Shown here in pieces: positions 46,838 to 47,842 of a DNA stretch of 64,000 bases. The position numbers and the translations under genes were made by a program. The notes under the pieces were generated by a model. That model was not told the DNA's origin. It searched no databases and saw only the letters and a program-made list of their open reading frames with translations. Location of the stretch: positions 38,874,001 through 38,938,000 of the forward strand of contig NC_083281.1 in the NCBI RefSeq assembly GCF_963506605.1, given 5' to 3'. Each line of letters begins with the position of its first letter. The first letter of the stretch is position 1. This DNA comes from Zootoca vivipara (taxonomy: Eukaryota).

Positions 46838-47842
46838 ATGAACAACTCCATCACCTCTGGGCTAGTGGTTGGCCAATGCCGGCTCAATGACCCCGTGCAG
46901 TTCATCCTGGTGCCGGCCGTCTACTGCCTTGTGTTGTGTGTGGGACTCCCAGGCAACGTGGCGGCCTTGCTGGTCTTCTTACAGAGTGGACGGGTTAGGA
47001 AGGCTATCCGCATCTACCTCATCAACCTGACACTGGCGGACATCTTCTTCAACCTCACTCTGCCATTCTGGATCCCTTACTATCTGGCTGAGGGGCATTG
47101 GGAGCTGCCGGAGGCCTTCTGCCGCTTGGCTGGAGCCACTTACTACTTGGCTACCTACAGTGCTATGGCCTTCATGACGCTCATCAGCCTGAACCGCTAC
47201 TGTACCATTGCCAAGCTGGAGATGGCTTTGAACAGGCCCCTGGGGGCGCTAGTGGGCTGTGCTGTGGCATGGCTGCTGTGCTTTGCCTGCGCAGTCCCCT
47301 CTTTGCTGACCCAGCAGACCTACCAGGTGGAAGCGATTAGCATGAAATGCTTTGAACAACACTCAGGGAGGAGGAGTTATGCCTGCGCCATGGTGGTTCT
47401 GTTTGCGGCCTCCTTCCTGGTTGTGTTAGGGGCCTACATGTCCATCATGAGATCTCTCTCGGCCTCAGCCGGCACCTGCCAAGGTGGGCACCGCCGGCGG
47501 GCACGTGCCATGGTCCTGGGCATGCTGCTGGTATTTGTGGTCTGTGTGGCACCCTACCATCTTTCTCTGGTTCCCTGGGTGGCCGACCGCATGGCCAGTT
47601 CCTTCTGCAGCCCTCCGTCTTTCTTGGACAACCTGCACATGCTGAGTGTGGCTCTGTTGAGCCTCAACAGCTGCATTGACCCCCTCATCTATTGCTTCTC
47701 TATCAAACGCTTCCGGACTGATTTGTGGATGATGGTGCGGAAGGTCGCACGCTGCCTCCCACTCCCCTCAGCGCTGCCGCCGCCGCCACCGGAAAACAGA
47801 TCTCCACCCAATATTCGGTCATCATCTCTAACTTCTTCATAG
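46838..47842 (+). CDS. Class A (rhodopsin-like, delta group) orphan GPCR, PTAFR/P2Y-like, 334 aa
   Basis: Uninterrupted ORF from ATG 46838, preceded by an acceptor ttctcttcttctggtag| at 46830; seven hydrophobic segments with GLPGN, NLTLAD, C-x..ISLNRY, W in TM4, CVAPYH and LNSCIDPLIY; N-terminal NNS sequon. Confidence 0.92.
   Translation: MNNSITSGLVVGQCRLNDPVQFILVPAVYCLVLCVGLPGNVAALLVFLQSGRVRKAIRIYLINLTLADIFFNLTLPFWIPYYLAEGHWELPEAFCRLAGATYYLATYSAMAFMTLISLNRYCTIAKLEMALNRPLGALVGCAVAWLLCFACAVPSLLTQQTYQVEAISMKCFEQHSGRRSYACAMVVLFAASFLVVLGAYMSIMRSLSASAGTCQGGHRRRARAMVLGMLLVFVVCVAPYHLSLVPWVADRMASSFCSPPSFLDNLHMLSVALLSLNSCIDPLIYCFSIKRFRTDLWMMVRKVARCLPLPSALPPPPPENRSPPNIRSSSLTSS

Follow-up and report, generated by a model that had tools for sequence, protein, structure and literature searches.

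GPR199 of the lizard Zootoca vivipara, the ortholog of human GPR199P, is a favored sister of the platelet-activating factor receptor and a possible sensor of phosphocholine lipids

Is the receptor gene that lies between TMEM35B and a DLGAP gene in the lizard Zootoca vivipara a platelet-activating factor (PAF) receptor, a decaying reading frame, or a receptor of its own kind that humans have lost? The window analyzed here, 64,000 nucleotides of the Z. vivipara genome, contains at positions 46838-47842 of the plus strand a coding exon (P0001) that runs from ATG to TAG and encodes 334 amino acids with zero internal stops. Its product covers the entire Pfam 7tm_1 model (E = 1e-43), and AlphaFold2 models the protein as seven long helices followed by helix 8 (mean pLDDT 80.7). 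All class A marks are present, namely TM1 Asn, TM2 Asp, TM3 Arg, TM4 Trp, TM6 Pro, TM7 Pro, and the TM3-ECL2 cysteines. The initial annotation had described an intact seven-TM reading frame free of disablements, and this description holds. A genome search found a single copy of the gene in Z. vivipara.

In 2019, Rinne et al. gave the name GPR199 to a set of genes near PTAFR found in gar, coelacanth (duplicated), sauropsids, and two mammals, and submitted symbols to HUGO; in the available part of that paper, the clade takes up one sentence on seven genes, including the anchor ENSLOCP00000002041 (PMC6504862). Our matches reproduce this membership pattern with gar (UniProt W5M0Y4 / XP_006631394), two coelacanth proteins, sauropsids, a marsupial, and a placental, and the lizard gene is almost certainly GPR199. 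The existence and name of the clade are already known. Synteny, a pocket analysis, and a map of losses are not given in that part of the paper, and the range is extended here to sharks, salamanders, lungfish, arowanas, and many placental orders. The gene had initially been called an orphan GPCR. No functional study of GPR199 was found in the open-access literature. Two papers that use "GPR199" appear to contain misprints of GPR119.

The human counterpart was reached by a mammal-seeded search as Q7L0L9, "Transmembrane protein LOC653160". Residues 35-119 of Q7L0L9 are 86% identical to the horse ortholog and 53% identical to the lizard protein, and similarity ends there. Among 52 lizard receptors, its best match is lizard GPR199 (84 vs 42 bits for the next). 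A supplement pairs Entrez 653160 with the symbol GPR199P (PMC8957201). Since Q7L0L9 is LOC653160, and thereby Entrez 653160 and GPR199P, the lizard gene is orthologous to human GPR199P, in agreement with the earlier proposal that it corresponds to a receptor broken in humans. A 210-amino acid reading of the broken remnant (P0343, unnamed, clustering with Pan entries) is recorded on 487 contigs, and human expression lists carry LOC653160 as an uncharacterized or noncoding transcript.

The neighborhood is consistent with this orthology. The gene order in the window is an RRM gene, TMEM35B, GPR199, and the last exon of a minus-strand DLGAP gene. An RRM exon identified with Pfam (1752-2108, plus strand) belongs to the upstream gene, which we take to be SFPQ, and zf-FCS exons lie 45-53 kb upstream. 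By homology, TMEM35B (24103-31663, plus strand) has three coding exons at about 24103-24210, 28843-29023, and 31533-31663, and the last coding exon of the DLGAP (GKAP) gene lies at 63677-63895 on the minus strand; from synteny we assume this gene to be DLGAP3. With exons of both neighbors located, the position of the receptor between TMEM35B and a DLGAP gene is as first annotated. A panda gene model fuses TMEM35B exons with the start of the receptor and maps collinearly onto the lizard window, and the macaque and minke whale GPR199 models are named "TMEM35B isoform X1". Read from these three protein models, the mammalian ortholog is directly downstream of TMEM35B, as in the lizard. The human gene order is presumably TMEM35B-GPR199P-DLGAP3, and we likewise presume that DLGAP3 lies on the other side of GPR199 in mammals. 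Two repeats were observed within the lizard TMEM35B introns: in intron 1, a 1,762-bp head-to-tail duplication (25283-27043 and 27040-28801; 99.8% identical), which is either very recent or an assembly artifact, and in intron 2, a 96-bp tandem repeat of 2.6 copies (30889-31138).

Seven nucleotides upstream of the ATG, a pyrimidine tract (21 of 25 positions) ends in the acceptor AG at 46829-46830 (feature 46806-46830, plus strand). This acceptor, noted in the first reading of the sequence, is the one used by the RefSeq Zootoca models P0105 and P0108. The extra residues of these models match, letter for letter, an upstream exon at 40910-41043 (plus strand; donor GT at 41044-45) that joins the acceptor. 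The upstream exon resembles what we take to be the 3' remnant of a CR1 LINE (window positions 40600-41300, with terminal octamer repeats), so the 5' exon of GPR199 may be transposon derived. A second candidate donor, CAG/GTGAAC at 46249/46250, follows a GA repeat (46200-46260) and could mark a nearer 5' UTR exon; in the RNA runs examined, no reads over it were found. At the other end of the gene, the AATAAA at 48514-48519 (plus strand), with a GT-rich tract behind it, had been called a canonical poly(A) site. The motif is there, but we retain it as a candidate only because it adjoins an interspersed repeat at about 48421-48489 of the presumed 3' UTR, to which reads of many other loci map, and because no read in the RNA runs examined marks cleavage at this site. 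Depth on the GPR199 reading frame was zero in three raw RNA runs, each with about 7.5 million records from an unspecified tissue and compared with the region from 45900 onward; one run that was guessed to be RNA gave two contigs at a depth of about 4, which we do not take as proof of expression. It is conservation that suggests a functional gene, with 44 positions invariant over 56 full-length orthologs from sharks to cattle.

The nearest match to GPR199 in the lizard genome (33% identity) is the true PTAFR, located 9.5 Mb away on the same contig (L002, C6:29.4 Mb). Compared with human PAFR (PDB 8xyd), this gene scores 407 bits and GPR199 137 bits, making L002 the best PAFR match of the genome, and the statement that PTAFR resides elsewhere is therefore correct. 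A maximum-likelihood tree (LG+G4) was built from 51 proteins, comprising 13 of the GPR199 clade, five PTAFR-side sequences, and 33 other lizard receptors. The lizard gene falls outside the PTAFR clade (support 100/98) in a clade of its own (100/100), and the pair of GPR199 and PTAFR is supported at 99/97, with cartilaginous fish on both sides. An approximately unbiased (AU) test rejects GPR199 as an amniote-only duplicate of PTAFR (p about 1e-141). It does not reject GPR199 as sister to a P2Y12-like group (p = 0.10), and a quick search under a mixture model gave the GPR199 plus PTAFR pair an unstarred support of 92. A sister relationship to PTAFR is thus favored by the sequence comparisons, not proven. 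Within GPR199, identity is kept at 44-90% from sharks to lizards. A fold search and the ESM Atlas gave no separation among the receptors of the branch to which GPR199 belongs. One bamboo-shark "PAF receptor-like" protein (P0136 cluster) on a long branch groups with PTAFR and has eight of ten residues that contact PAF in a docking study; it may be the shark PTAFR or a further paralog.

The initial annotation regarded the gene as retained in reptiles, which proved too narrow. Full-length GPR199 was found outside mammals in squamates, turtles, crocodilians, birds, salamanders, lungfish, coelacanth, sharks, rays, and a chimaera, and among ray-finned fish in gar, bowfin, sturgeons, bichir, and arapaima. 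In mammals, it is present in platypus, marsupials, golden mole, aardvark, tamandua, mole, bear, cats, rhinoceros, horse, pig, camelids, cattle, sheep, goat, and deer, and the majority of placental orders among the matches have a full-length copy. In a test against the pig sequence, 58 of 156 proteins passed as full-length and 98 failed, with several entries per species and three shark PTAFR-like proteins included. The platypus protein fails the gap limit of this test, yet aligns over lizard residues 1-299. Two word-based searches with lizard or nonmammalian seeds had suggested a loss in all mammals, which was overturned by a profile search and a mammal-seeded search. Among the matches listed, with the best approximately 8,000 sequence-sharing candidates scored, there were none from rodents, rabbit, bats, lemurs, frogs, or most teleosts; because the searches were word-limited, we do not take this as loss. 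For large clusters in the ortholog listing, 15 members are listed, and totals are thus at least the numbers given.

By the same full-length test, none of 22 primate entries and none of eight whale entries is intact. In 17 of the 22 primate entries, all from apes and Old World monkeys, the protein departs from the receptor sequence at one point just after TM2, and the sequence past this point resembles a shifted-frame reading of a camel fragment. Together, the common break and its continuation suggest one ancestral frameshift, as judged from the proteins. In all eight whale entries, the N-terminal Cys is replaced by Arg. A single loss in the common ancestor of apes and Old World monkeys, and another one in whales, are likely. 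Since both broken and intact entries exist for camel and pig, an isolated broken model in another species is not counted as a loss, and entries from elephant seal, mink, grey seal, and the marmoset family were not assigned as losses.

The annotated likeness to the PAF receptor at NRY and DPxxY is sound for the first motif and less telling for the second. NRY occupies residues 119-121 (47192-47200, plus strand) and DPLIY residues 281-285 in TM7 (47678-47692, plus strand). An Asn preceding the TM3 Arg is found in none of 50 other lizard receptors and is PTAFR-like, but DPxxY occurs in 34 of the 50 and is common in this branch. At the DRY position, all 12 placentals have CRC (for example P0364, P0377, and P0398), six marsupials have SRY, and sequences outside mammals mostly have NRY; in the tree, no internal branch of the GPR199 clade is longer than the mammalian stem. 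Both proposed disulfide pairs could be located on the plus strand. Cys95 in TM3 (47120-47122) and its partner Cys171 in ECL2 (47348-47350) are present in 56 of 56 orthologs, and the candidate N-terminal pair of Cys14 (46877-46879) and Cys257 (47606-47608) in 55 and 54, respectively. The latter cysteines are common in the branch: 38 of 50 other lizard receptors have the N-terminal and 33 the ECL3 Cys, and lizard PTAFR has both.

PAFR contacts for comparison were taken from a docking and dynamics study built on structure 8XYD (PMC12648956). In that account, the PAF choline lies near W73, Y77, F97, and E175, the phosphate is with Q252 and H275 (Q252 being named for the alkyl-PAF phosphate), the acetylated linker of acyl-PAF is with H188 and Q252, and the tail extends between TM4 and TM5; the key residues are W73, F97, F174, E175, W255, and H275. 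Lizard GPR199 has five of these six identical and the sixth aromatic, and all 56 orthologs hold four to five identical, a level of four being reached by two of 50 other lizard receptors. Trp78 (47069-47071, plus strand) is aligned with W73 and is predicted to form a choline cage with Y82, Y102, F172, and E173. His267 (47636-47638, plus strand) corresponds to H275, the docked phosphate contact, and is found in 56 of 56 orthologs (3/50 other lizard receptors); Trp247 (47576-47578, plus strand) corresponds to W255 and is found in 55 of 56 (0/50). Also invariant among the orthologs are W78, Y82, and Y102, with E173 and T106 each in 55 of 56; F172 is changed to Leu in placentals only. An equivalent of PAFR T101 occurs in one of the 50 other receptors.

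Not all of the PAF pocket is kept. Of the ten contact residues, six are identical in GPR199, H188, Q252, and Y177 are replaced, and F97 is Tyr. PAFR H188, H248, and Q252 correspond to Ala, Tyr, and Leu in the lizard protein. Across the 56 orthologs, the first is never His (it is His in all five PTAFR-side sequences), the second is Tyr or Phe, the third is Leu or Ile, and the residue at Y177 is variable. Retention is nevertheless enriched at the contacts: five of six key contacts are kept, compared with 17 of the 59 other positions typical of PTAFR (Fisher p = 0.015), with a weaker enrichment for the longer ten-residue list (6/9, p = 0.034). In an unbiased scan of 41 columns common to GPR199 and PTAFR, four were pair-specific and five half-specific, and five of these nine are named PAF contacts in that source. 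None of the ten contact positions so defined is Arg or Lys in GPR199, unlike in lizard P2Y1, P2Y12, LPAR6, GPR34, GPR174, and GPR4, each of which has at least one.

Retention of the choline-site residues, replacement of H188, H248, and Q252, and absence of Arg and Lys at the contacts named in the docking study would together make a phosphocholine lipid other than PAF the likeliest ligand. On our reading, which the ligand class makes about as likely right as wrong, GPR199, an orphan class A receptor, the favored sister of PTAFR and the ortholog of GPR199P, would act at the cell surface as a sensor of a lipid with a phosphocholine head, related to PAF but probably not PAF itself. The choline group would sit in the aromatic and acidic cage W78-Y82-Y102-F172-E173, with H267 touching the phosphate and W247 forming part of the pocket wall, and the acyl chain would take the path between TM4 and TM5 that docking gives for PAFR. 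The change of H188/H248/Q252 to A/Y/L would alter the glycerol/sn-2 region, as might suit lyso-PAF, lysophosphatidylcholine, sphingosylphosphorylcholine, or oxidized phosphatidylcholine. Output would be through a G protein, Gq or Gi if PAFR is a guide, and the conserved Ser/Thr tail would serve to end the signal. Of the lipid- or nucleotide-sensing role proposed initially, the lipid half is thus favored by the predicted pocket and the nucleotide half disfavored.

It is rather unlikely, though a reading of some weight, that GPR199 responds to something other than a choline lipid, such as a nucleotide, an anionic lysolipid, an oxysterol, protons, or a small metabolite, and that the common residues are an inherited scaffold. 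Pocket residues common to GPR199 and PTAFR may simply be inherited. Overall identity to human PAFR is 28.6%, not above that to several other receptors, the fold search places P2Y1, PAR1, and GPR4 level with PAFR, and 14 of 50 other lizard receptors likewise have equivalents of CFE plus W73; the P2Y12-like sisterhood that passes the AU test fits here as well. GPR199 resembles the P2Y1/P2Y12-like and anionic lysolipid receptors (LPAR6, GPR34, and GPR174) in branch, fold, DPxxY, and the two candidate disulfides. These receptors differ, however, in forming their own clades and in having Arg or Lys at positions that W, L, H, or A occupies in GPR199, and the lack of a basic residue at the ten positions, together with the enrichment of kept residues for PAF contacts, argues against this reading.

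That GPR199 is a second true PAF receptor, with PAF as its main agonist, we consider unlikely. Like PTAFR (PDB 8xyd, 5zkq), its favored sister, it has Asn before the TM3 Arg, DPxxY, and equivalents of W73, Y77, T101, F174, E175, W255, H275, and C294, and thus the choline cage and the W255 and H275 positions; moreover, Q252 varies even among PTAFRs (Asp in the lizard). By contrast, H188 is never kept in 56 orthologs, H248 and Q252 are changed as described, and Y177 varies, and the docking assigns H188 and Q252 to the acetylated linker of acyl-PAF and Q252 to the alkyl-PAF phosphate (PMC12648956). The F97 to Tyr replacement and the separate locus further distinguish GPR199 from PTAFR.

The cytoplasmic side could point to a lipid-binding receptor whose signaling is atypical (arrestin-biased, constitutive, or scavenging) and does not use a G protein, which we regard as very unlikely. 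The TM6 switch residue is Val or Leu in GPR199, a small aliphatic residue where PTAFR has Phe and 48 of 50 other lizard receptors are aromatic; the ICL2 proline is missing in 38 of 56 orthologs and present only in 18 therian sequences; DRY is changed to NRY, SRY, or CRC; and the Ser/Thr-rich tail is conserved. However, R120, Y200, P239, P282, Y285, and helix 8 are conserved, and PAFR itself signals with NRF and DPxxY (coupling as given in PMC12648956). G protein output is thus retained in our reading, and the unusual TM6 switch, the therian-only ICL2 proline, and the placental CRC indicate that coupling may differ from that of PAFR. Finally, it is barely credible that the lizard gene is the true PTAFR, a recent copy of it, or a reading frame in decay: NCBI calls some orthologs "platelet-activating factor receptor" (gar, alligator, a finch, cattle, and camels) and RNA depth was zero in three runs, but the separate locus at C6:29.4 Mb and the tree refute identity with PTAFR, the AU test excludes an amniote duplicate, and 44-90% identity is kept from sharks to lizards.

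In a wider and tentative view, which we regard as possible but doubtful, GPR199 would be a second PAF-family receptor of jawed vertebrates, tuned to phosphocholine lipids that are oxidized or have lost the acetyl group (lyso-PAF, lysophosphatidylcholine, or oxidized phosphatidylcholine). Retained from sharks through to cattle, pigs, horses, and cats, it would have been lost at least twice, once through a frameshift that apes and Old World monkeys inherited from their common ancestor and once more in whales. If this is true, humans would be without a lipid-sensing pathway that livestock and pets possess, and PAF-type lipid signaling in humans would not be that of most other vertebrates, among them the farm animals that serve as models. 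Receptors for phosphocholine lysolipids have been disputed, and GPR199 would then be a directly testable candidate. Even without a ligand, the gene provides a dated human gene loss with living intact orthologs. The label "platelet-activating factor receptor" that databases attach to GPR199 in the species named above is a naming trap. We found none of the mammalian breadth, the common catarrhine break, the separate whale loss, or the choline-pocket argument in the open-access literature.

Several further receptor genes were observed in the lizard genome. Near-identical GC-rich GPCR copies at C7:96.03 Mb (L023) and C1:135.69 Mb (L051) are 98-99% identical in DNA, and each is about 30 kb or less from a contig end; the pair represents a subtelomeric duplication or an assembly artifact. 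A GPCR match at C12:12240074-12240952, with one internal TAA, lies amid chemokine-receptor-like matches and is possibly a pseudogene. At C11:35.54-35.64 Mb, there is a tandem cluster of six protease-activated-receptor-like genes (L007, L008, L011, L012, and L036), several of which we take to be PAR1-like.
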